Part shown: positions 47,568 to 58,908 of the stretch, in pieces
How the letters are laid out: the number at the start of each line of letters is the position of its first letter
Position numbering within the stretch: position 1 is the stretch's first letter
From: a virus
Virus record (IMG/VR): IMGVR_UViG_3300035171_000016
Location: 1 to 64,000 of that record
Reading direction: 5' to 3' (one strand)
DNA length: 64,000 bases
The notes under the pieces: model-generated
Database searches by the model: none
What the model was told of the DNA's origin: nothing
Seen by the model: only the letters and a program-made list of their open reading frames with translations
Translations under genes and position numbers: made by a program

Positions 47568-48200
47568 CTATTGAGCTAAGAACCAGAACCAATCTGGATG
47601 ACCTAAATGCTTAATAGTTAACGCTACAGGCATGGGAAGAGGCTCCTTATGGTTAAATAAAGGCTTTAAGCCTAACTCTTCCAAAGGTTTATTTCCACGC
47701 TTACTATTAATTTCGGCATCTACGAACATAAGATTTTCAAAAGTATCTTTTCCGCCGTGACTTTTGGCCTGCTTATGTTCAAGATTTCCTCTTTTAAAAG
47801 GAATTTTCTTGCCAGAATAGCCACATCTTCCGTCCTGCTTCTCGTAAAAGTACATTTTAGTTGGCCTAAACCTTTTTTTAGGTATTTTGCCATAATTTGT
47901 AACGATTACTGAAGGGCAACGAATTGTTAGTTTTGAAGTTCTAACTACATTATCTATTCCGACTCTTGGCTCAACCATTAACCATTCTTCAAAATCTAAA
48001 GCTTGGTAATAATCTAATTCGTTTAAATTTAATGAGCCGTCCTCATTTTTCTTATAAACGACATCAATAGCCTTTGCGGTAATAGTATAGTCGTTAGACT
48101 GGCTATTAAGCGCGACTAAAGCCTTCTTTGGTGAAAGAGTGCCGATACACTGGTAGCCTTTATTCAAGACTAATACTGATGATTTATTTAAATAGTCCAT
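47568..48200 (-). CDS. HNH endonuclease
   Basis: VLVLN..Y, PSVI, CGYSG...NLEHKQAKSHGGKDTFENL.....N..RGN. Confidence 0.8.
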   Translation of the reverse strand: MDYLNKSSVLVLNKGYQCIGTLSPKKALVALNSQSNDYTITAKAIDVVYKKNEDGSLNLNELDYYQALDFEEWLMVEPRVGIDNVVRTSKLTIRCPSVIVTNYGKIPKKRFRPTKMYFYEKQDGRCGYSGKKIPFKRGNLEHKQAKSHGGKDTFENLMFVDAEINSKRGNKPLEELGLKPLFNHKEPLPMPVALTIKHLGHPDWFWFLAQ

Positions 48201-48440
48201 GTTATACTAGTTTCTATTTTATTTTTATTTAATTTGTCCCATTGTTTTAATGCGTAATATATTCTTTTAGTCGCGCTTCCAATTCTTTCTTTAGAAATAT
48301 CTCCGTGTGCATGAATTGTGCTTCTTAGTGCCCCGACAATAGCTTTTTCTAAACTTCCGCGTTTGTTTGTATTAAAATTAAAATTGTTCATTTATTAATA
48401 AAAAATAATAGATAAATATTAAAATGTCAAGAAATTAATT

Positions 48441-48691
48441 GAAACGCAGCCATAATCGCCGTTCTGTTTTATCTCTACATTTATCTCACTTTTCAGTGGC
48501 TAATCTTTATGATTAGCTGCTCCAACCTTTCCTTTACATCGGCCAGCACTAGCCTTTGGAACTTTAGGATTACTGCTAATTTGTGGTATTAATGAACGGG
48601 TGCAAAAGCAAGTACCGTTCTCCCAACATCTGCTATGCAGAGGCGAATTTCCTCAAATCATTTCTGACTTGCGTAGAGTCGCTTACGTTTC
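48441..48691 (-). ncRNA. rnpB: RNase P RNA (compact, about 250 nt)
   Basis: P1 GAAACGT/GCGTTTC; P2 CTCTAC/GTAGAG; P3 hairpin; CR-I GAGGAAATTCGCC; GGAGCA; P15 and P18 (GAAA) hairpins; AGATAAATG; CR-V ACAGAACGGCGATTAT with compensatory P4 TCGCC/GGCGA. Confidence 0.88.
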
Positions 48692-49126
48692 AAAATTTAT
48701 TTTTTCTATAGTAGCGTCTGGATAAATAATTATAATTTTTTTCTTCATTTTCACAGCATACCTTTTGGTAGACCATGTTCCTGACCTAAGTTGTTCAATT
48801 TTTTCTTTAGGACAAACAATTAATAATTCAGATTCGTTAACAATATCTTTATTTCTATCTAAATACGGTTTTGACGGCAAAATTGTTTTAGCTTTACAAA
48901 AGGCTCGTTTAACCTCATTAATTGGTGGATGAATAATAATTTTTCCTAAAAATTTATTCTTATTTTGAATAAAATAAAAAACAGATAAATTATGAGCATC
49001 ATAATCAGCCCCTAAACAATCTCCATGATGAAATTCTCTACAGTCTAACGTAAACAAAAAAATAAAAAATATATTCTTTTGTTCCTGAGTCATTCCTGCC
49101 TGTGTTCCAGTAAATCCTATAACCAT
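48683..49126 (-). CDS. SLOG/DprA-like nucleotide-binding protein
   Basis: IGFTGT, HHGDCLGAD, YL.RN..IV, RSGTWST. Confidence 0.6.
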   Translation of the reverse strand: MVIGFTGTQAGMTQEQKNIFFIFLFTLDCREFHHGDCLGADYDAHNLSVFYFIQNKNKFLGKIIIHPPINEVKRAFCKAKTILPSKPYLDRNKDIVNESELLIVCPKEKIEQLRSGTWSTKRYAVKMKKKIIIIYPDATIEKINFET

Positions 49127-49560
49127 ATAATTTATAATTTCCAATTATCTTGATTATCCTCAAGTCTAGAATTAAACCATCCATAAAAACCAGAAGGAAA
49201 AGAGGCAAATATAATAGACATAAAAATACAAAATAATACTCTAATAGGCCACAATGCTACCCATCCAACCCACCAAGTTATAGTTTTTTTAGTCATATAA
49301 ATATGATAATATTGTTATTTTAAAAAGTCAAGATATATAAAAACAAAAAATCCATCAGAAACTAATCTGATGGATTTGATTTATTAAAAAAATTTATGAC
49401 AATTGTTTTATTACATTTGCCGCAAGATATTGTATCTGGAATAAATCCGGTAGTAGCCCATTTTTGAAAATGGCCGCATTTACATTTTAATTTAAATTGA
49501 GGAACTTGGCCGTATACACCGACCTTGCGACTTCTAATTCTTATTGCGTTTTTCATAAAA

Positions 49561-49635
49561 TGGAGGGAATGGCTGGACTTTAACCAGATTATCTTCTTTA
49601 CGAAAGAAGTGCATCAACATAAATGCTTCAAACCC
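49561..49635 (-). tRNA. tRNA-Thr(CGT), mismatched acceptor stem
   Basis: CTTCT-TTCGTAA-AGAAG; CCA end. Confidence 0.75.
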
Positions 49636-49639
49636 GTAA

Positions 49640-49714
49640 TGGAGGGAAAGCCGGAACTTGCATCCGGTTGACAATATTACCAATATTGCGTTTTACTATA
49701 TAAACCACAATCCC
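49640..49714 (-). tRNA. tRNA-Thr(GGT)
   Basis: CAATA-TTGGTAA-TATTG; CCA end. Confidence 0.78.
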
Positions 49715-49945
49715 ATTTAAGCTATCCAGACATCAATCTATAATTACATCCGTATTTTTCTTTAAAAACTTCGTTTTCTTTTTTACCATGAACTTTTGGC
49801 CAGCCTTGTTCTTCCCATATAATACAATACTCGCAAATACCATGAATAATAATCAAATCACGCCCGCATTCTGGACACTGATTTTTTAGATAATATTTGC
49901 GTCCAAAAGTAAAATCTTTCATATATTTAATTATGTTAGGTAACA

Positions 49946-50025
49946 TGGCGAAGTTGGCGAGAGTCGAACTCGCATAATTTCCAATTATGCACTTACTGTT
50001 TAGGAAACAGAGCCATTACAACTTC
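49946..50025 (-). tRNA. tRNA-Arg(CCT), lacking a D arm, long variable arm
   Basis: GAAGTTG/CAACTTC; CTGT-TTCCTAA-ACAG; GCGAG-TTCGACT-CTCGC; GCCA. Confidence 0.7.
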
Positions 50026-50054
50026 AAAATTAATAATAATTAAAATAACTTCCT

Positions 50055-50336
50055 TTACCATAAATGAGAAAAATCAATCTCTCTGGTTCCAACTTGAATG
50101 CCTATGCTCCCATTTAGAGTCGAAAGATGCGTGGCCGTTAGAAAAGAAAAGAAAAGAAAAGAAAAGAAAAGAAAAGAAAAGAAAAGAAATGAACTATGAT
50201 TAGGACATTCAAAATAGAATAGGTCATTCCCACTTCTTTCTCCAGTTAAGGGGTCGAACTTGATTTCCACAGAATACTCTTTTATAATAAGAGGGCTTCT
50301 GCATTTCTCACAAAAAACATCAGATTTAGTTTTCAT
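50055..50336 (-). CDS. Zn-ribbon-like hypothetical protein containing a pentanucleotide SSR
   Basis: CEKC...CPNH then FLFFS repeats. Confidence 0.5.
   Translation of the reverse strand: MKTKSDVFCEKCRSPLIIKEYSVEIKFDPLTGERSGNDLFYFECPNHSSFLFFSFLFFSFLFFSFLTATHLSTLNGSIGIQVGTREIDFSHLW
50141..50189. repeat. (GAAAA)9+GAAA simple sequence repeat
   Basis: Perfect tandem pentamer read directly. Confidence 0.95.
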
Positions 50337-50352
50337 ATTTTGTTTTATAAAA

Positions 50353-50444
50353 TGGCGGATACAGAAGGGGATGCTCCCTCACTGGCTGTTAAACCAGAAC
50401 ACTTTAGCAAAGTGCCGCGCCAAGCTGATATGCGCCTTGTATCC
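50353..50444 (-). tRNA. tRNA-Ser(GCT)
   Basis: GCACT-TTGCTAA-AGTGT; long variable arm; G73. Confidence 0.85.
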
Positions 50445-50448
50445 AAAA

Positions 50449-50533
50449 TGGTAGCCACGGGGAGATTCGGACTCCCAAACCCATCCGGTTTAAGCGGATA
50501 TGCTGTTCCAGTTCGCAATGAGGGCACGCGGCC
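50449..50533 (-). tRNA. tRNA-Leu(TAA), atypical
   Basis: ATCCG-CTTAAAC-CGGAT; short variable loop; extended D region. Confidence 0.8.
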
Positions 50534-50803
50534 ATTAAATTAACAAAATAAATACCTATAATATACTACCATCAAAACAAAATACAGAACTAATCCGGTA
50601 ACATATAATATTAGTTTAATTAAATCTTTAGAACTTATATTTTGTTCATAAAAATTATTTTCTTTTTCTGGTGGATATTTTGACCAATAATCTCCATCTG
50701 TTTTATACCATCCATCAAGAATGGCGCGATTACGATGTTTTTCTATCCAAGGTTCTTTCATATAAAAAGTATAATACTTTTATGCTTTAAAGTCAATACA
50801 AAT

Positions 50804-50878
50804 TGGTGCGCCTAGATGGTAACAATCCATCTTCTTTCGGGTAAGGGCCGATTGCTTCATCATTAAAGCTTTAAGCGC
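50804..50878 (-). tRNA. tRNA-Lys(CTT)
   Basis: TCGG-CCCTTAC-CCGA (C33); CCA end. Confidence 0.75.
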
Positions 50879-50882
50879 AAAA

Positions 50883-50961
50883 TGGTAGGCGATGCAAGGT
50901 GGGAACTTGCGGCATTTTCTTTGTAATAGAAATAGTCTTAACCCGTCTGACGTAATCGCCC
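50883..50961 (-). tRNA. tRNA-Val(TAC)
   Basis: TTTCT-ATTACAA-AGAAA. Confidence 0.82.
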
Positions 50962-50968
50962 ATAAAAT

Positions 50969-51047
50969 TGGTACTTCTACTATGTTACCAGCATAGATAA
51001 TTAGATTCAGAGTCTAATATAATTAAGGTATTTATATTATAGAAGTA
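50969..51047 (-). tRNA. tRNA-Gln(CTG), very AU-rich, divergent T loop
   Basis: TTAGA-CTCTGAA-TCTAA. Confidence 0.72.
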
Positions 51048-51052
51048 TGAAA

Positions 51053-51130
51053 TGGAGGACACGGGGAATTGGCTGCTCCCATAATGCTCATTACAAATAA
51101 GCTACTTTAAGCCATTTAAGCTACGAGTCC
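51053..51130 (-). tRNA. tRNA-Thr(TGT)
   Basis: GCTTA-TTTGTAA-TGAGC. Confidence 0.78.
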
Positions 51131-51660
51131 ATTAAAAATTATATTCTCTTTCGCTAATTAAAATTCCGTCTCTATAAACTTTGAACCAATCATAGGGCTG
51201 GCTTAATACAAAATTTTCACATTCAATAAAAGTATCTCTATACTCTTCTATTAAATCTAATCCTCGAATTTTGAGTTTAATTAAATATCGTTTCATAAAC
51301 ATCCACTATAATATTCTTCCCACATACCCTTCCAATATTTATCATTTTCTTCTTGGCATACTGGACATAAGATTGCAAAATTACTTTTATCTTCAACGTA
51401 ATTAGTATTTTGGCGACGTTTTATCGCACCTAACTTATTACAACAATCGCATCTAAGTTTTCTTTTCATTTAAATTAAATTTTGAATTAGGATTAGTATA
51501 ACACCATTCACATTGGACTTGAATTTGTATTTGTTCTCCATATTCATTATGAGTAGTTAAGTGTCCTACATACCATCCAACATTATCACAGTGAGGACAG
51601 TCTTGCCCCTCCTTATTACAATGCGAGCCATTTACAAATGTTGTTGGCTCAAACATAAAT

Positions 51661-51737
51661 TGGTCGCTAATCTTGGAATTAAACCAAGTAACTTGTCTTT
51701 ATGAGAGACAAAGCTCAATCAGTTGCGTTTATTAGCG
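51661..51737 (-). tRNA. tRNA-Met(CAT)
   Basis: TGTCT-CTCATAA-AGACA; CGCTAAT/ATTAGCG. Confidence 0.8.
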
Positions 51738-52167
51738 TTTATTAGCGTTTTTTAACTTCGTTTACTTTTACTTTGTAAATTTTAAATTTATTATTAGGTA
51801 ATTTAATCTTAAATGTAAATCCCTTTCCGTATGGTAGATATTTCCCATTAAAATTAATTTCTTTTATTACCCTATATTTTCTATTATAAGAACGATTTAG
51901 CTCTGCTTGTAATCCACAAAGAACTTTATCTCCGAGGGTCAAAGATATTAAATCTGGAATATATTCATTATCAAATTTATTCATAATATAATTCGGTTAT
52001 AAAATAGTTAATGATGGCAACAGCTTCCCACCATAGTAAACATAGAGAAAATAGCAATCCATGATAAGTTAATAGATATATCTTTTAAAATCTTTTTGAT
52101 TTCGTTAAATTGTTTATCGTTCATGTATTGATATTAATATAAAAAATATAAGAAGTCAATATTAAAA

Positions 52168-52243
52168 TGGCCCGGTTTATCCGAGTCGAACGGATTTCTC
52201 CTCCTCTTCAGGGAAGATACATGACCCCACATTAGCAAACCGG
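52168..52243 (-). tRNA. tRNA-Phe(GAA)
   Basis: CTTCC-CTGAAGA-GGAGG; ATCCG-TTCGACT-CGGAT. Confidence 0.82.
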
Positions 52244-52247
52244 AAAC

Positions 52248-52323
52248 TGGCGCGGGTTTCGCTTGAATTGAAATGTATCAACTCAACCAAGTTCCTTTTG
52301 TCTAACTTGGAATAGGAGCCCGC
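52248..52323 (-). ncRNA. tRNA-sized three-way-junction RNA ending in CCA
   Basis: GCGGG/CCCGC-GCCA closing two hairpins (CCAAGTT/AACTTGG and TTGAGTTGA/TCAATTCAA). Confidence 0.6.
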
Positions 52324-52328
52324 ATAAA

Positions 52329-52405
52329 TGGTACAGTCGGTAGGAGTTGCACCCACATAATTCTCCTTAGAACGGAGTTCCCTAATCTATTCGAGGCACG
52401 GCTGC
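52329..52405 (-). tRNA. tRNA-Arg(TCT)
   Basis: CTCC-GTTCTAA-GGAG. Confidence 0.8.
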
Positions 52406-52412
52406 ATTAAAA

Positions 52413-52490
52413 TGGACGACCTATCTAGTCGGGAGCTAGAAAATAGACTTTCAAAGAGTCCTGTGTTTAACCCACTTACACTATAGGTCG
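52413..52490 (-). tRNA. tRNA-Gln(TTG)
   Basis: GGACT-CTTTGAA-AGTCT. Confidence 0.8.
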
Positions 52491-52889
52491 AGCTTTGTGT
52501 GGACAGGTTCCGCCGTTAATTTGCCTACCACAATTACAATTAAAGCATAAAATTCGATAACCGGATGGAAAATTATTTCTAATGATATTAATTAATATAT
52601 TTCTAGAGCCGTTAAATTTTTTTCTTTCTTTGTTTCCGTTATTATTAATATGGTCAACCGTAAGAAATTGATAAGTATCTTCCCCGCAGCATTCACATTT
52701 ATTGCCATAGTGTTCTATTACAGTTTTTCTTATTTTGTTGCAATATCTTTTTGAATTTTCTTTGTAATTGGGGTCTGATTTTGAGCGACATTTCCAGCAT
52801 ACAGAGCGAAATAATGGCTCTCCATTTTCCTTATAATTTGCTATTTCCGCATCTTTTTCTTTACATATTTTACATTTTGGTCTATTCAT
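52476..52889 (-). CDS. HNH endonuclease inserted in the tRNA array
   Basis: CECCGE....LTVDHINNNG...LCFNCN; the stop overlaps the 5' end of tRNA-Gln. Confidence 0.78.
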   Translation of the reverse strand: MNRPKCKICKEKDAEIANYKENGEPLFRSVCWKCRSKSDPNYKENSKRYCNKIRKTVIEHYGNKCECCGEDTYQFLTVDHINNNGNKERKKFNGSRNILINIIRNNFPSGYRILCFNCNCGRQINGGTCPHKARPIV

Positions 52890-52956
52890 AATGGTATTTA
52901 CACTAAATCCATACCACTTTATAAAATATTAAAAAATGATTGTATATATCTATTAT

Positions 52957-53286
52957 TTACACCTTTAATAATGGAAATTTCTTAAAAATATCAGGCCAAT
53001 CTACCCTAGGGCAAAAGACTAATGCAATTTCTTGATTATCTAGGCCGGATTCGGTAACAATAATATACTCACTGCCATTATCATTCTCGAAATTCTTTAA
53101 ATATTCAAATTCATCATCTGATACCTCTACCACAACCTTCCTAAATGAATTATTAATCCATTCTTGATAAGATGCTCTGGCCGCGAACTTTAAATGCGCC
53201 ATAAGCACCCCATGAGCCGCCCCAAGGACTTTATGGCTTGGTATTGACTGTTTAATACAGATATACATTTTTGAGTAACTATTCAT
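52957..53286 (-). CDS. peptidyl-tRNA hydrolase, Pth2-like
   Basis: KMYICIK...AAHG...W....RKVVVEV...IALVFCPR...LL; start corrected to avoid tRNA-Glu. Confidence 0.7.
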   Translation of the reverse strand: MNSYSKMYICIKQSIPSHKVLGAAHGVLMAHLKFAARASYQEWINNSFRKVVVEVSDDEFEYLKNFENDNGSEYIIVTESGLDNQEIALVFCPRVDWPDIFKKFPLLKV

Positions 53287-53305
53287 AATTATATTGTTTA
53301 GAAAT

Positions 53306-53384
53306 TGGTATTCGTGTGGAGACTCGCACTCCATAGATATTCTGGGTGAAAACCAGACCGCTCGACGACTTTGCGCTCACGAAC
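53306..53384 (-). tRNA. tRNA-Glu(TTC)
   Basis: TCTGG-TTTTCAC-CCAGA. Confidence 0.82.
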
Positions 53385-53394
53385 ATTAAATTAT

Positions 53395-53682
53395 TTATTG
53401 TAATAAATGCTTATATGAATTTGTCATATCTTTTAAAATACTATTTAATTCATAATTTGTAATACTATTAAAATCTAAATTTTGTGTTTTTATTTCATAT
53501 AACCTTCCACTTGCATATCCTAATTCGGTGGCAGAAATTATTGCCTCAAAATACGTTTTTCTTTCTGCTTTAAGGGCGGCGGATAAATCATAATTATCTT
53601 TATCTCTATCTCTATCTCTATCTTCTCCACAGCCAACGGTTAATATTAAAGTAGTTAAGGCTATTATTAAGTTTAGTTTCAT
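53395..53682 (-). CDS. putative lipoprotein
   Basis: MKLNLIIALTTLILTVGC lipobox. Confidence 0.6.
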   Translation of the reverse strand: MKLNLIIALTTLILTVGCGEDRDRDRDKDNYDLSAALKAERKTYFEAIISATELGYASGRLYEIKTQNLDFNSITNYELNSILKDMTNSYKHLLQ

Positions 53683-54560
53683 AGTTTTTTATTTTATTTT
53701 TTAGAAGTTTTAATATTGTATTTTTTAACTACTTGTGTTGTTTTGTAATTTATACTACAATCTTTTATATAGTTTTCAATCCATAATTCGGCCTCTACTA
53801 AAGAAATCTTAGACGCCACGCATTTACCTATATGATTAATAGATGGTTCTGAAAAATTTTTCCATATAAAGAAATCTCTAAATTGAGGAACATAATAATT
53901 ACCATCTTTGATTATTCGTAATTTCATAGTTTTTTAATTTCATCTATTACCGTTCCGTATATTTTATATACTTTTTTACCATTTTGAGAAATTGATTCTA
54001 ATTCTCGGTTTTCTTTAAGTAATTTTAATATCTTAAATTTCATTGCATCTTGACCGTCAGAAAAACCATCGCGCCAAGATTCTTCTATGTCTTGTTTATG
54101 AATATCCATATTTAAAGTTTATTGATTTTTTTTATTACCGTTTTTAGTTGTGGATAGTCAAACTTCCATTTTTCACAAAAATATTTTAAAGATTCATAAT
54201 TTTTATTTCTTAAATCATAAAAAGGAGAATTAACGCTATTACCTTTATGCTGTTCATACTGGCTATCCGCCTTCTGATATGCAGACATTAAAGCATTACA
54301 TTCTTTTTTATTTAAATTCATATTTATTTAAATTCATATTTATAATTTAATTCCATCAAAATCAACAGAATTCAATTCAAACTCTTCTGGATTAGATTTA
54401 CATTCTTTCGCCTTTTCAAAGGCTAGTTTTTCTAAATCTTCTATAGTTAATTCAACTCTGCAAGTATCGCAGCCAGTCCAGTTTTTTCGCTTCATCCATA
54501 CTGTAGTTTTAATTGTCATAGTTTTATGATAATATAAAAAATTATAAAAGTCAATAAAAA

Positions 54561-54636
54561 TGGTAGCCTATGTTGGCTCTGCCCCAACCACCTTTCCCTT
54601 ATCAAGAGATTGCTCTGCTAAATGAGCTAATAGGCC
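54561..54636 (-). tRNA. tRNA-Ile(GAT)
   Basis: TCTC-TTGATAA-GGGA. Confidence 0.82.
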
Positions 54637-54643
54637 ATTAAAT

Positions 54644-54717
54644 TGGTATTCCTAAACGGTTATGCTCCGTTTTCTTGGATTTGAGAAACCCACGAGATAC
54701 TATTACTCCATAGGAAC
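54644..54717 (-). tRNA. tRNA-Glu(CTC)
   Basis: TGGGT-TTCTCAA-ATCCA. Confidence 0.8.
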
Positions 54718-54724
54718 ATTAAAT

Positions 54725-54803
54725 TGGTGCGTTCGGAGGCTTGGGATTCCTCGTTCAGTCGCTTAAAAGGCGATGTTTCTTAACCCATTTGAATTACGAA
54801 CGC
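54725..54803 (-). tRNA. tRNA-Lys(TTT)
   Basis: TCGC-CTTTTAA-GCGA. Confidence 0.82.
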
Positions 54804-54881
54804 ATAAAATTAATTATCCGATATTTTTATTCGCCTCGGGGACGCCGAAAGGCAATTACGCTTTCTCGGCAGGGCGAAAAT

Positions 54882-54970
54882 TGGCTGGGGCAACAGGGAT
54901 TAAACCTGTAGGTGAGATTTCTCTCGGAAGTTTAACAAACTTCTGCGTCTATCAATTCCGCCACACCCCA
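54882..54970 (-). tRNA. tRNA-Asn(GTT) with a class II body
   Basis: GAAGT-TTGTTAA-ACTTC; variable arm GAGA-GAAA-TCTC; U1-A72; G73. Confidence 0.82.
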
Positions 54971-55053
54971 ACAAATCGTTTCTCCGCCATCCTACACAGG
55001 ATACTTTATTTTTTCTAAGCAGAAGCGATATTCTGCGCGGGTACTAAATTAAA

Positions 55054-55143
55054 TTGTTGTAAGTGTTCAATACAGTTCAGACCGGAGCAGCGGGAATAAG
55101 ATGCCGCCGCATTCTCTTCACCCTATGACCTAAGTTACAACAA
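55054..55143 (-). ncRNA. unknown structured RNA
   Basis: Closing stem TTGTTGTAA/TTACAACAA; inner GCGGCGG/CCGCTGC; motif GGTCATAGGGTG. Confidence 0.5.
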
Positions 55144-55145
55144 AA

Positions 55146-55220
55146 TGGAGCACTTGGAGAATTTTGAAATCTCGACGTTCACGTTGGAAGCGTGACACTC
55201 TGCCTCTGAGTTACAAGTGC
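55146..55220 (-). tRNA. tRNA-Gly(TCC)
   Basis: TCACG-CTTCCAA-CGTGA; U73. Confidence 0.87.
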
Positions 55221-55227
55221 ATTAAAT

Positions 55228-55318
55228 TGGGTGCAGAAAGTGGAGTTAAACCACACATAGCGAAAGTTAATTCGCCTGCCTTATGAGGGCAGTTAGCGTC
55301 TCGCGGCTTGTTTCTGCA
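55228..55318 (-). tRNA. tRNA(CAT) with long variable arm, possible 8/4 fold
   Basis: CTGCC-CTCATAA-GGCAG; GCGAA/TTCGC variable arm; TGCAGAAA/TTTCTGCA. Confidence 0.75.
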
Positions 55319-55330
55319 ATTCTAATGAAA

Positions 55331-55415
55331 TGGTCGGGATTGGGGCGTTCGCATCCCCACGGATTTCTCACCAGTTCCCAAAACTGGCCCGGAACTACTT
55401 ACGGTCTAAATCCCG
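55331..55415 (-). tRNA. tRNA-Pro(TGG)
   Basis: CGGGATT/AATCCCG; CCAGT-TTTGGGA-ACTGG. Confidence 0.82.
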
Positions 55416-55690
55416 ATAAAATATTACTTTAAAACTTTTTCAAAATGCGGCCATTCATAATCTCCTTCTGGCCAAGGAGTTCTTTCTATTCCTAGATTTT
55501 CATTTAATTTTATCTTTCCGATAAAACAATTAACGTGTTTTGCGGCCTTTCTAGCTTTTGCGATACTATCAAAAATACCAACAAACTCCCATTCTAATTC
55601 TTTATTGATAATATCAGGAACATATCCTACTAAATATAATTGTTTCATAGTTTTATGATAATACTAAAATTTTGCTTTGTCAACTAAAAT

Positions 55691-55768
55691 TGGAAGCCAG
55701 CCGCAGTAACGCTCTGCGTAAACAAGAATTTTGCAGATTCCGGGGTTAATCTTACTCCCTCGCTGGCT
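55691..55768 (-). tRNA. tRNA-Cys(GCA)
   Basis: GGAAT-CTGCAAA-ATTCT; U73. Confidence 0.8.
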
Positions 55769-55943
55769 ATTTAAAGCTTAAATCGTAGAACCAACAAATA
55801 AAGCCAAACCAATTGGAATCCATAATAGATGTCCAACACTGAATGCGGCCAAGACAAAACAAACAATTGCACCGATTTTAAGTAGTATTTTATAATCCAT
55901 ACCTTATTATATACTTTTATCTCAAAAATTACTATTAAGTTTT

Positions 55944-56246
55944 CTACTTACTGTTTTTAAAAAATGCTTTTATAAAACCAAAAATAAAAATAGCCATGAA
56001 CAAAACTATTAACATTTTTAATGGAAAAGCTATAAATATATCAAATATAGAACAGTTACTTCCAAAACCAAAGGTATTCCATAAAAAGCTACCAATATAA
56101 TAAAACGAAACAACAATACCAGAAAATAAACACAATCCAATTATAATTTTTAATGGAGCTATTAATAATTCAGTCCCTCCACTAGATTCATTTATTAGTT
56201 TTATAGCCTTGTCTTGCTGAAACTTATTTTGTGGTACAAATATCAT
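55944..56246 (-). CDS. membrane protein
   Basis: Two hydrophobic segments. Confidence 0.55.
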   Translation of the reverse strand: MIFVPQNKFQQDKAIKLINESSGGTELLIAPLKIIIGLCLFSGIVVSFYYIGSFLWNTFGFGSNCSIFDIFIAFPLKMLIVLFMAIFIFGFIKAFFKNSK

Positions 56247-57119
56247 ATATTATTTTTTAATTTTTAAATTCATAGGAAATGCTGGAACTGAACTTGGCCA
56301 ATTATTCATTATAGAATCGCTAAAAATATTTCTCATACTAAAGCTATCCGGCAAACTTCTGTAACACGTTTGCATATTTTTCATCCATTGGTCAATTTTA
56401 CAATCAAAATAAAAATCAAAATATAATTGAGATTCTTTCATTTAATCTCTCCGGTATAAACAATTTTTCTTTGCTTTTTGTTCTTAGAAAATAACCTATC
56501 CGACATATAATCAAGACTATTTTGTATAGTATTAAAATAAACTTTATATCCATCTTCTGTAAAGAAAGATTGAAAATAAGAATCAATTTTACACTGTGGA
56601 TAAAAATGATTTTCGTCTTGCAATACTCTAATCTTGTATTTTTTCATTTTTGGTTACTCTTACTGATTTTTTTAGCTTTAACAACTCTTACTTGATTATT
56701 TACCATTACTCTACCTACATTTTGGCCATCCATAGATACAGTATAATATCTATTGTCCGGCAAGTCAAGAGCCTTCCTTACTTTTTCATCGGCAGCTAAT
56801 GGATTTAAACAGTATTCTTTAAATAGGTCTGGCGGCATTTGTTTCATATTATCTAGTATCTTGTAATGGAATTATCTCAGTAATTTTAATAGCAACTTTA
56901 TTTTTAATTAATTTATCTGCTATTTTCTTTGTAAAATAAAATTCTACACCAGCCTTTACAAGTCGCCTTCCACTTTCACCTAATAAGCCGGTAAGAAAAA
57001 TAGCTTCGGGGTCAATGATTTTAATCCTAACTGCATCTGGAACATAAGCTAGTTCTTTTAATAACTCTGGAACCACCATGAATTGTAGTTTAATTTTTTT
57101 CATAAGATTTTATTTAAAA

Positions 57120-57214
57120 TGGCGGATAGTGCATCGAATCGAACGCGCACCGGCCTTTCGGCGCGGTCAACTTTTCAAGAGTTGTGGGGCAAACCAATAT
57201 CCCACCTACTATCC
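57120..57214 (-). tRNA. tRNA-Ser(TGA)
   Basis: CAACT-CTTGAAA-AGTTG; long variable arm; G73. Confidence 0.85.
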
Positions 57215-57316
57215 ATAAAATTTATTTAGATTATAATTTCTTAGACAATAGACTAAGTATGTTTTCTTACATCAAAAGACTTTTCAAAGTATTTAGTCTT
57301 TTATAATTTCTAAAAA

Positions 57317-57393
57317 TGGCGGGACTAGCCGGAATCGAACCGAGCTTTCTTACCGTGACAGGGTAAGCGATGAAACCACTCTCTTTTAATCCC
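57317..57393 (-). tRNA. tRNA-Asp(GTC)
   Basis: TTACC-CTGTCAC-GGTAA; G73. Confidence 0.87.
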
Positions 57394-57403
57394 ATAAATT
57401 GAA

Positions 57404-57571
57404 TTACCAATAAACTTTATTACCAATCCGAGTCTTGTCGGTATTGGCAAAGCGTTCTATTAGGCGAGCGCATCCTATTCAATTCTATCGGCAGAATAAA
57501 CTGCTTACAATGATATTGAATTAAGTCCTATATAATATATGAGAACTATTTAATTATGGTGTTATTGGTAA
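57404..57571 (-). ncRNA. unknown multibranched RNA (about 170 nt)
   Basis: 10-bp closing stem TTACCAATAA/TTATTGGTAA with internal hairpins. Confidence 0.5.
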
Positions 57572-57573
57572 AA

Positions 57574-57657
57574 TGGTCGCCCTGACAGGACTTCAACCTG
57601 CAAAACCACCCGTTCTAAGCGGGCAAGCTGTGGCGTTCGCTACAAGGTCACAGGGCG
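57574..57657 (-). tRNA. tRNA-Leu(TAG), atypical
   Basis: GCCCG-CTTAGAA-CGGGT; short variable loop; extended D region. Confidence 0.8.
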
Positions 57658-57661
57658 GAAA

Positions 57662-57746
57662 TGGTCGCATCGCGGAGACTTCAACTCCGAAAACTCTACG
57701 TTTTGAATGTAGTGGCTGTAGCAATTCGCGCTTATGTCACGATGCG
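57662..57746 (-). tRNA. tRNA-Leu(CAA), atypical
   Basis: CTACA-TTCAAAA-CGTAG; short variable loop; extended D region. Confidence 0.78.
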
Positions 57747-57750
57747 GAAA

Positions 57751-57829
57751 TGGTATCCCATAGAAGCTGGCGACTTCTGACCAATCCCTTATAAAGAGAA
57801 CGCTCTTGAGCCATGTGAGCTAATGGGAT
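57751..57829 (-). tRNA. tRNA-Ile(TAT)
   Basis: TCTC-TTTATAA-GGGA. Confidence 0.78.
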
Positions 57830-57834
57830 ATAAA

Positions 57835-57911
57835 TGGTGCATCATAAAAGAGTTAAACTTTTATCTAACTGGTTCGTATCCAGTTGCTTTATTCAATTAA
57901 GCTAATGATGC
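57835..57911 (-). tRNA. tRNA-Arg(ACG)
   Basis: ACTGG-ATACGAA-CCAGT. Confidence 0.82.
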
Positions 57912-58089
57912 GTTAAATTTAATTTATAATAAACCTTTTATTTTTTCTATCAAACTACACTTACATTCTTTCTTGCTCTTTCGGCAATATCTACAAAAAA
58001 ATTCTCGTACATATTCACAGTCGGAACACCAACCGTGGCAACATTTACTGTTTCTTTGTCCTATATCTAATTTATATTTTTTCATTAAA

Positions 58090-58165
58090 TGGTCAGGTGG
58101 CCGGGTGTCGAGCCCGGTTAGCAAGTTTCACACACTTGGAGATTAGCCGTTATCCTACGCACCTG
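58090..58165 (-). tRNA. tRNA-His(GTG), lacking G-1/C73
   Basis: CAAGT-GTGTGAA-ACTTG; A73. Confidence 0.75.
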
Positions 58166-58175
58166 TTAAAATAAC

Positions 58176-58240
58176 AATCGGTATGCTTCCATTACACTAA
58201 GGTTTCGCTCCTATTTGGACTTGAACCAATACCTCCGATT
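58176..58240 (-). ncRNA. circularly permuted mini tRNA-like RNA (T arm, closed acceptor, D arm)
   Basis: AATCGG...TTGG-TTCAAGT-CCAA...AGG-AGCGAAA-CCT...GTGTAATGGAAGCAT...CCGATT. Confidence 0.6.
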
Positions 58241-58244
58241 TAGA

Positions 58245-58333
58245 TGGTGGCGCGGTGAAAGTAACGCTCTTTTTGCTTAACTTCTCAACTATTTTAGCAA
58301 AGGTTTTACAGACCCTCGTTGAGGACACCGGCC
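58245..58333 (-). tRNA. tRNA-Tyr(GTA), lacking a D arm, long variable arm
   Basis: AGGGT-CTGTAAA-ACCTT; A73-CCA. Confidence 0.72.
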
Positions 58334-58334
58334 A

Positions 58335-58556
58335 TTAAATTTTACTTATAAATCTTTTATTAAAATATAAATTATCTTTTTTTAATTTAATAAACTCTTC
58401 AATTTTATTTGCAAGATTAACTAGTTTATCATCTTTAAGATATTTGAAACATCCGTTTTTAATTAAGACTCCTATAATATCTTCTCCTTCTTGTGCTGAT
58501 AGGTTATCAAAAATAAGACCTATTGATATTTGTTCGTTTTTTGTTAGTTGTTTCAT
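58335..58556 (-). CDS. hypothetical protein
   Basis: Start corrected to MKQLTK because the longer ORF runs through tRNA genes. Confidence 0.55.
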   Translation of the reverse strand: MKQLTKNEQISIGLIFDNLSAQEGEDIIGVLIKNGCFKYLKDDKLVNLANKIEEFIKLKKDNLYFNKRFISKI

Positions 58557-58559
58557 AAA

Positions 58560-58637
58560 TGGTGGAGAATTTGGGATTCTAACCCAACTGGATTCGCATT
58601 GCAAGTGCGACGACCACAACAAGCAGTCCCATTCCCC
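58560..58637 (-). tRNA. tRNA-Ala(TGC)
   Basis: TCGCA-CTTGCAA-TGCGA; G3-U70. Confidence 0.88.
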
Positions 58638-58750
58638 GTAAATTAAAAACCGCAATAGAAAGATTTTAGTTATACTCATAAATGAGTCGCGGTTAAATTT
58701 TGCTCCGAGGGCCGCGTGAATACGTCTATTCAGCCTAGGGAGCGGTAAGA

Positions 58751-58827
58751 TGGCACAACGAATGGGAGTCGAACCCATCTATTACCGTTTTGGAGGCGGC
58801 GGCTTCACTCAACTTAGCTATCGTTGT
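58751..58827 (-). tRNA. tRNA-Trp(CCA)
   Basis: Loop CTCCAAA; ATGGG-TTCGACT-CCCAT; G73. Confidence 0.85.
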
Positions 58828-58834
58828 ATTAAAT

Positions 58835-58908
58835 TGGAGCATCATAACGGTATTGAACCATTTTATCTAACTTGGCAAGCTAGGGCATTACATTTATGCT
58901 AATGATGC
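58835..58908 (-). tRNA. tRNA-Gly(GCC)
   Basis: CTAGC-TTGCCAA-GTTAG; U73. Confidence 0.85.

Follow-up and report, generated by a model that had tools for sequence, protein, structure and literature searches.

A predicted miniature RNase P RNA, stripped of most of its specificity domain, beside the tRNA array of an uncultured soil phage

The DNA analysed here (the window) comprises the first 64 kb of IMG/VR virus record IMGVR_UViG_3300035171_000016, a 147,760 bp record (31% GC, ~95% complete) from an uncultured soil phage whose genes include a family-B DNA polymerase, a terminase, a ribonucleotide reductase and a DnaB-like helicase, and whose nearest cultured phages are only ~25% identical in terminase. 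On the minus strand, positions 48441-48691 hold a 251 nt candidate RNase P RNA gene (the window RNA). No open reading frame (ORF) of at least 60 amino acids (aa) runs across these positions, the GC content is 42% compared to 30-33% in the flanks, and the predicted fold is more stable than that of shuffled versions (z = -2.56). The first 9 nt of the RNA also form the end of an upstream 153-aa ORF, namely its final two codons and TAA stop. A first-pass annotation made from the letters of the window had placed a phage-encoded, miniaturised RNase P RNA at exactly this position. Our analysis supported both the identity, by profile and covariance models that never saw the window RNA and by full structural compatibility (see below), and the coordinates, as the archaeal RNase P model RF00373 aligned end to end precisely at 48441-48691 on the minus strand and a separate search for helix P1 gave RNA ends within 1-2 nt of the RF00373 alignment ends. 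The locus was also spanned, with zero differences, by a set of contigs from an independent rhizosphere study (X2), and identical partial fragments of a 1.2-kb stretch were present in three further studies. The parts of the RNA, numbered so that nt 1 is window position 48691 on the minus strand, are as follows.

48441-48691, minus strand: candidate RNase P RNA gene, 251 nt (RF00373 end-to-end alignment, family hidden Markov model (HMM), P1 ends, 71 of 71 pairs)
48681-48691, minus strand: P1 5' strand, nt 1-11, overlapping the end of the 153-aa ORF; the helix has 10 bp
48673-48678, minus strand: P2 5' strand CUCUAC, nt 14-19, with its partner nt 214-219 at 48473-48478; 6 bp
48654-48671, minus strand: P3 hairpin, nt 21-38; 6 bp
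48642-48654, minus strand: conserved region (CR) I and P4 5' strand, GAGGAAAUUCGCC, nt 38-50, with a bulged U46
48637-48640, minus strand: P5 5' strand CUGC, nt 52-55, with its partner GCAG at 48573-48576, nt 116-119 (two covariance models)
48631-48635, minus strand: 5' strand of the P6 pseudoknot, UAGCA, nt 57-61, with its partner UGCUG in the P17 loop at 48544-48548, nt 144-148
48577-48630, minus strand: specificity-domain remnant with a stub helix GUUGG/CCAC, a conserved GGAGA and one hairpin at nt 72-98
48521-48572, minus strand: J5/15 (UAA, nt 120-122), P15, P16 and P17, nt 120-171 (interior covariance-model alignment; the pairs form)
48499-48517, minus strand: extra hairpin GCUAAUC-AUAAA-GAUUAGC between P15 and P18, nt 175-193
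48487-48498, minus strand: P18 with a GAAA tetraloop, nt 194-205, flush with CR-IV
48478-48486, minus strand: CR-IV, AGAUAAAUG, nt 206-214
48452-48467, minus strand: CR-V and P4 3' strand, ACAGAACGGCGAUUAU, nt 225-240
48441-48450, minus strand: P1 3' strand, nt 242-251

Overall, all 71 proposed pairs, distributed over 13 helices, form in the 251 nt RNA. CR-I, CR-IV and CR-V follow one another in this order (GAGGAAAUUC, AGAUAAAUG and ACAGAAC....AUUA), and the helices of the catalytic domain (P1-P3, P5, P6, P15-P17 and P18) are all present with every pair forming, so that the predicted catalytic domain is complete from P1 to P5, with the P4 and P6 pseudoknots, P15-P17 with a GGU in loop L15, P18 and the three conserved blocks. 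P4 consists of 7 bp between CR-I GAGGAAAUUCGCC and GGCGAUU of CR-V (nt 43-50 with 232-238, U46 bulged), and its changes are compensatory relative to 15 other RNase P RNAs, in agreement with the CR-I/CR-V pairing claimed by the first-pass annotation; P1, P2, P3 and the GAAA-capped P18 abutting CR-IV, which it had also named, were all recovered. The specificity domain (S-domain), in contrast to the catalytic domain, is a remnant of ~60 nt (nt 56-115) closed by the stub helix (strands 65-69/106-109); the CR-II (ACAGARA) and CR-III (GUGAAA) motifs are not present in the RNA, nor were P7-P14 found in it. The earlier claim of a reduced S-domain therefore stands, with the difference that the domain covers ~60 nt and not the ~116 nt assumed at the time.

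The window RNA was then set against other viral RNAs. A search pattern of three universal RNase P motifs at miniature spacing (GAGGAAANTC ... AGATRAATG ... ACAGAA) matched six other viral contigs, and Rfam identified each of these as a truncated RNase P RNA (44-71 bits, E 1e-10 to 1e-19, each under its gathering score); tRNA genes are found close to four of them, in three cases as multi-tRNA arrays. A size-independent CR-IV/CR-V pattern returned more than 100 stretches, 39 of which have GAGGAAA 80-325 nt upstream. Fifteen compact viral RNase P RNAs, with the window RNA left out, were aligned (alignment A1), and RNAalifold predicted 43 pairs for them, 35 with compensatory changes. When the window RNA was added and the P2, P4 and P6 pseudoknots were written in, 93.2% of cells were paired, compared to 33-43% with slid partners, double changes occurred in 45 of 53 pairs, and none of 500 shuffles equalled the observed values. 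By this comparative evidence, the compact RNAs are a genuine structured RNA family with RNase P topology. The P6 pseudoknot is found at the same position in 15/15 members, in eight complementary variants, and joins five nt that start one base past P5 to the last five nt of the P17 loop; the window RNA has its own compensated version (UAGCA/UGCUG) at this very position. It also keeps 42 of the 47 family-invariant columns, and at least three of the five losses are alignment slips. The stub of the compact family carries GGAGA...UAC, and often two hairpins precede CR-IV.

The association with tRNA genes extends through the family: a tRNA lies within 500 nt at 15 of 30 member loci, almost always co-oriented with the RNA. 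No RnpA was found in five further carrier records, which include a complete genome of 184 kb. One of the tRNA-linked viral matches (L009) also adjoins a GOLLD RNA (L009:2460-2944, minus strand; 144.8 bits with a gathering score of 150) in which a tRNA is nested at 2801-2873; it lies ~1.4 kb from the compact RNase P RNA of that contig, in the same tRNA array.

We found the window RNA with models built in its absence. An HMM of A1 (nhmmer) gave one match in the 148-kb genome, which was this locus (E = 3e-8; next best E = 4.3), covering profile positions 11-202 of 206 (192/206). When the family consensus pairs were projected through this structure-blind alignment, 32 of 38 formed, compared to 11-20 of 37-38 in slid controls, and the missed pairs were 1-2-nt alignment slips. 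A covariance model (CM) of the interior only (R1: 15 family interiors, window RNA excluded; 103 positions and 18 pairs in P5, the stub, P15, P16 and P17) was run unfiltered and aligned over its full length (positions 1-103) to RNA nt 52-173 with 22.0 bits. Across the whole window, the unfiltered search ranked the locus first, with a roughly calibrated E value of 0.0022 and a runner-up of 13.3 bits, and the match falls precisely where the interior is expected, with CR-I on one side and CR-IV on the other. RF00373, in permissive mode on 551 nt, gave the end-to-end alignment with 18.3 bits and E = 0.0033, which became E = 0.072 when 12 kb were searched.

These scores have to be read with some care. 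Against the A1 HMM, the window RNA reached 28 bits and the A1 members 119-153 bits; members and most other viral copies together span 63-153 bits, and the weakest near-full-length viral copies score ~29-32, so that, by this measure, the window RNA is the most divergent of the phage copies collected here. The family had been collected with a pattern that the window RNA also matches, which in itself guarantees that the three blocks score. Small cellular RNase P RNAs retrieved with the same pattern (Candidate Phyla Radiation (CPR) bacteria, Elusimicrobia and archaea) scored 11-40 bits, a range that includes the 28 bits of the window RNA; the HMM match thus points to an RNase P RNA and not to membership in the compact family. 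The best cellular interior obtained 17.5 bits with R1, compared to 22.0 bits for the window RNA, an asymmetrical comparison in that the cellular value came from default filters and the latter from an unfiltered search.

A few matches from these searches were set aside or noted separately. Five three-block matches in cellular genomes (L155, L162, L167, L191 and L195) look like chance occurrences in coding DNA, with no RNase P-like interior and no HMM match, and the pattern alone is therefore not fully specific in cellular genomes. Many ANME-1/Methanophagales metagenome-assembled genomes (MAGs) match the miniature-spacing pattern, and one Methanophagales MAG (JANPRD010000011.1) has two matches ~400 nt apart (L143 and L194), which could be two adjacent small RNase P-like RNAs. 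An origin from an archaeal virus, raised by the RF00373 match and the many archaeal pattern matches, was rejected on account of P18, the bacterial-style CR-IV and the bacterial type-A layout of P15-P17 and P6, and archaeal RNAs were, in addition, a poorer fit to the interior model. Within the window, an exact 15-mer of the family S-stub consensus (UUUGUACUACCGAGG) at 38640-38626 on the minus strand lies inside a 313-aa ORF and was judged a chance match.

According to these models, the fold probably closes P5 at nt 116-119, the position chosen independently by RF00373 and by R1. P15 is then formed by nt 123-125/169-171, P16 by nt 132-134/160-162 and P17 by nt 138-151, and L15 has AAAGGUU on its 3' side, with the GGU (nt 165-167; 48525-48527) falling under the GGU of the compact family in the CM alignment, an assignment that depends on P5 closing at nt 116-119. 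The first-pass annotation had taken the AUAAA hairpin for P15 and its loop for L15, and the GGU consequently seemed to be missing; under the best-supported fold, that hairpin is the extra helix at nt 175-193, which has counterparts at the same place in L073, L108, L007, L010 and L115-L117. An alternative explanation is that the earlier fold was right and P5 closes at nt 172-175, which would leave a reduced S-domain of 116 nt (nt 56-171), a P15 without GGU (the AUAAA hairpin) and no P16, P17 or P6, in what would still be an RNase P RNA. Either closure is possible in that GCAG occurs both at nt 116-119 and at nt 172-175; furthermore, UUGGAGCA is similar to GGAGCAAG, which forms the 3' strand of P5 in standard bacterial RNAs (L083, for example), and GAUGUAAAGGAAAGG is faintly like the CR-III-like GUGAAAAGG..AAACC of Elusimicrobia RNAs. 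We nevertheless regard this fold as unlikely: besides the choice made by the two covariance models, P6 starts one nt past P5 and ends flush with P17 as in 15/15 members, P15, P16 and P17 each form 3/3 pairs at family positions, CR-II (ACAGARA) is absent and the bacterial type-A model RF00010 does not match.

The genes and signals around the RNA are listed below.

47568-48200, minus strand: HNH endonuclease-like gene, which shares its variable island with the RNA
48683-49144, minus strand: 153-aa ORF upstream of the RNA, no Pfam domain
49303-49331, minus strand: sigma-70-like promoter match (consensus match only) that could drive the 153-aa ORF and the RNA
49348-49377, minus strand: terminator-like hairpin closing the tRNA array transcript
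49564-58908, minus strand: tRNA array, co-oriented with the RNA; CCA is encoded in all tRNAs checked except one tRNA-like element

The array upstream of the RNA contains between 13 tRNAs on the same strand (ARAGORN) and ~20 if weak Rfam hits are included, seven of them at the Rfam gathering score, and the nearest tRNA lies 873 nt upstream of the RNA, again on the same strand. CCA is encoded by 13/13 ARAGORN tRNAs and 14/15 Rfam tRNA hits. The sole tRNA-like hit without a following CCA, at 49946-50025 (minus strand), matches the tmRNA model RF00023 with 19.4 bits (E 1.6e-4). A tRNA with a long arm at 57124-57214 (minus strand) matches only the tRNA-Sec model (28.6 bits, gathering score 47), and its CCA is offset by one base. 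The aberrant T- and D-loops described in the first-pass annotation were seen in several of the tRNAs: tRNA-Thr, Ser, Glu and Gln (49640-54970, minus strand) have non-canonical T-loops (UGCAAGU, AGCAUCC, AGCAUAA, CUCCCGA), and the D-loops of the first three tRNAs are without GG, while tRNA-Gln keeps GGG and tRNA-Phe (52168-52243) is canonical, with UUCGA and GG kept; tRNA-Thr lies at 49640-49714 and tRNA-Glu at 54644-54717. Overall, tRNA scores here were 27-58 bits, compared to 44-78 bits for the canonical tRNAs of L008, L009 and L011. No match to RnpA (PF00825) was obtained in six frames of the 147,760 bp record, which extends to the whole record the earlier observation that the window has no rnpA.

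The terminator-like hairpin that ends the array, followed by promoter-like hexamers, suggests a transcript spanning the 153-aa ORF and the RNA, and the two are probably co-transcribed. A second promoter-like site, again by consensus match only, begins 10 nt past the RNA.

The 153-aa protein has 388 homologues on phage-like contigs, of which some (L121 and L122) have tRNA genes within ~1 kb. The closest homologue is 82% identical and is encoded on a 178-kb contig (L118) that shares flanking genes with the window at 55-87% protein identity, in the order methyltransferase, 153-aa homologue, homologue of the window ORF o59466, two ORFs, GIY-YIG endonuclease and 84-aa homologue. In the window, the 10-kb tRNA array separates o59466 from the 153-aa gene, and the order of these two genes is swapped relative to L118. 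The cargo between the 153-aa and 84-aa genes also differs: in the window (47568-48691) it consists of the RNase P RNA, a 67-aa ORF and the HNH endonuclease gene, and in L118 (L118:6445-8189) of a 91-aa ORF, a 143-aa ORF and the GIY-YIG endonuclease gene. Judging from this gene content, the island around the RNA is variable and linked to homing endonucleases. Neither a tRNA nor an RNase P RNA was found in 12.4 kb of L118 at the syntenic site, and no RNase P-like RNA was found within 6 kb in any of the five relatives reached via the 153-aa gene (L118-L122).

Searches aimed at closer relatives of the RNA itself returned little. The RNA had no blastn match among 50,697 phage records, its neighbour protein had no relative in the viral contig collection, and a terminase search for relatives gave only one 5-kb contig. 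The window RNA's own P4 sequence, used as a metagenome pattern, had 0 matches, and a relaxed metagenome pattern returned three ordinary family members and no sister of the window RNA. As the X2 contigs are identical at the locus, they offer no variants for covariation testing, and no RNA data set was listed among the sequencing runs that contain the locus.

Taken together, the element is almost certainly a real RNase P RNA homologue, a judgement based on sequence comparison, and we think it likely that its gene gives rise to a functional RNase P RNA, much reduced but descended from bacterial type A, that works as a processing ribozyme. Its most likely role, as far as the sequence can indicate one, would be that of an accessory RNase P RNA using the host protein on phage pre-tRNAs. 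Transcription of the RNA would accompany or directly follow that of the 153-aa gene, downstream of the phage tRNA array, and the RNA would assemble with RnpA of the host, which we infer to be the partner because the phage encodes none. The predicted ribozyme would then remove the 5' leaders of phage pre-tRNAs. Substrate recognition would rely on the leader, the acceptor stem and the pairing of CCA with GGU, the elbow formed by the T- and D-loops playing no part; since the tRNAs encode CCA and the GGU is present, the CCA-GGU contact is expected to be in use. RNase P constructs consisting of the catalytic domain (C-domain) only are active, particularly with protein. By this route, the phage would gain an additional, elbow-independent capacity for tRNA processing.

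Several results weigh against a functional RNase P RNA at this locus. The comparison with the Rfam RNase P models that the first-pass annotation had suggested was, by itself, not enough to establish or to refute the identity. RF00373 aligned end to end, as described, with a score (18.3 bits) far below its gathering score of 84, and in the whole record no match at E <= 10 was obtained with RF00010 (bacterial A; gathering score 100 bits), RF00011 (bacterial B) or RF02357 (type T); a gathering-mode Rfam scan of the whole window returned tRNAs only. An HMM restricted to the interior between P5 and P15, and thus without the blocks, missed the locus at E <= 10, which means that the interior has no significant primary-sequence similarity to the family. 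R1 also missed the locus with its default filters, and its E values are rough, coming from a shortened calibration. No sister sequence turned up, which leaves elements particular to the window RNA, such as the extra hairpin and the S-domain hairpin, without covariation support. Finally, the absence of the RNA from the syntenic site of the closest relative indicates that it is dispensable for that lineage.

The first-pass annotation had further proposed that a relaxed S-domain could suit the unusual tRNAs of this phage. A tolerance of odd elbows is compatible with our results; the idea of a special adaptation of this phage is weakened, as the S-domain loss is family-wide and includes phages with canonical tRNAs. 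It is possible that elbow-independent processing allowed the elbows to drift. A stronger version, which we consider doubtful, is that tRNA maturation has become partly orthogonal, with an RNase P that lacks the S-domain ignoring the elbow and thereby freeing the tRNAs to drift, the two forming a co-evolved private pair; the drifted tRNAs (G55-type T-loops, D-loops without GG) might then be poor substrates for elbow-reading host enzymes or defences.

The divergence of the window RNA also admits the reading that this genuine RNase P RNA homologue has lost its enzymatic activity and is a decaying copy acquired with the tRNA or homing-endonuclease island. Among the collected phage copies it is by far the most divergent (28 bits with the family HMM), it lies in a variable island beside an HNH gene, it is missing from the syntenic site of the nearest relative and its interior has lost most primary-sequence similarity. 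However, all 71 pairs in the 13 helices are intact, both pseudoknots included, the invariant positions are kept at 42 of 47 with at least three of the five losses being alignment slips, and GC is held 10 points over the flanks. Moreover, P4, P6 and P15 have changed in a compensatory manner that decay would not be expected to produce, and we consider a decaying copy quite improbable.

Less probable still is a decoy or regulator that titrates host RnpA or binds pre-tRNAs or other RNAs, and so skews host tRNA maturation during infection. With no rnpA encoded by the phage, any protein partner must be the host's, and the regions that contact RnpA in solved holoenzymes, such as the T. maritima holoenzyme structure (CR-IV, CR-V and P2-P3), are the best conserved parts of the window RNA. 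Such a decoy, however, needs neither a catalytic P4 with a bulged U nor P6, J5/15 or a CCA-binding GGU, all of which are kept, and the close association of the family with tRNA arrays in the same orientation is indicative of the processing of the phages' own transcripts. That the element is not an RNase P RNA at all, being an unrelated structured RNA or a chance resemblance, is very hard to credit: Rfam scores far under every gathering threshold would fit it, but the three universal blocks, with 24 specified bases between them, occur in the correct order and at the correct spacing, the 13 helices follow RNase P topology, and two models built without the window RNA match significantly, all of which contradicts it.

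A functional, reduced RNase P RNA, as favoured here, would have consequences beyond this phage. RNase P RNA is regarded as a cellular housekeeping ribozyme of universal occurrence, and full-text literature searches returned no description of a virus-encoded RNase P RNA. RNase P RNA as a kind is known; the phage-borne form without the S-domain is new. The nearest precedent is the unexplained extra RNase P RNA copies of two mycobacterial genomes (PMC9569102). The phage genes are natural deletions of the specificity domain and could show which RNA is minimally required for accurate pre-tRNA cleavage in vivo, and with them a processing enzyme joins the translation-related functions that phages bring along with their tRNA arrays. 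The combination of CCA-encoding tRNAs, a retained GGU and aberrant elbows makes elbow-independent recognition directly testable. In addition, the window RNA is too divergent for any public model and thus marks the sensitivity limit of current annotation.

Compared to known systems, the window RNA is closest in architecture to bacterial type A (E. coli M1 RNA, T. maritima; RF00010), with which it shares helices P1-P5, including the P4 pseudoknot and its bulged U, as well as P6, a P15-P17 unit carrying GGU and a P18 closed by a GNRA loop; the type-A blocks CR-I GAGGAAA.UC, CR-IV AGAURAAUG and CR-V ACAGAA....UUA are all present in it. Unlike type A (~350-400 nt), it measures 251 nt, has a stub helix and one hairpin in place of P7-P14 with CR-II and CR-III, carries an extra hairpin between P15 and P18, has no RF00010 match and is encoded by a phage without rnpA. 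Similar to the compact phage RNAs of A1, it has an S-domain stub, the same P6 position and short P15-P17, is located in or beside a co-oriented tRNA array and comes without RnpA. It differs from them in its own P4 sequence (UUCGCC/GGCGAUU) and in its location, 873 nt beyond the array in a homing-endonuclease island and not between tRNAs. The compact phage RNAs are not in Rfam, and no paper on them was found in the literature.

Natural loss of nearly the whole specificity domain, P12 included, is known from the type T RNase P RNA of Thermoproteaceae (Pyrobaculum; RF02357), which measures ~200 nt. The P12 loss in Thermoproteaceae has been described (PMC8172020). Unlike the phage RNA, type T is archaeal, works with several archaeal proteins and is encoded by an essential, single-copy cellular gene. 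The RNase P RNAs of CPR bacteria (Lui et al. 2021, PMC8172020) resemble the phage RNA in their sub-threshold Rfam scores and in the need for manual refolding, and the small cellular forms in general (CPR, Elusimicrobia and archaeal MAGs) have a similar overall size and the same three conserved blocks. However, those inspected keep a recognisable S-domain with CR-II and CR-III motifs, which the phage RNA has lost. Many CPR RNase P RNAs are without P16/P17 and the CCA-binding motif (PMC8172020), so that the phage RNA displays the opposite pattern, with the S-domain gone and P16/P17 and the GGU kept.

Extra RNase P RNA (RPR) copies have been reported in Mycobacterium austroafricanum and M. sp. 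YC-RL4 (Behra et al. 2022, PMC9569102); they have altered specificity domains and conserved catalytic residues, lie beside an endonuclease gene and were inferred to be horizontally acquired (PMC9569102). These copies, which we liken to the phage RNA by description and not by sequence, are located on bacterial chromosomes, with no link to tRNA arrays and no family described. The remaining comparison is with the engineered mini-M1 and C-domain RNase P RNAs, in which a C-domain without S-domain still cleaves pre-tRNA, especially with protein or at high salt. It is this C-domain-only cleavage that we propose as the mechanism of the phage RNA. The engineered constructs are laboratory deletions that have no stub and show reduced activity and specificity, whereas the phage RNA is a natural form that keeps the stub.

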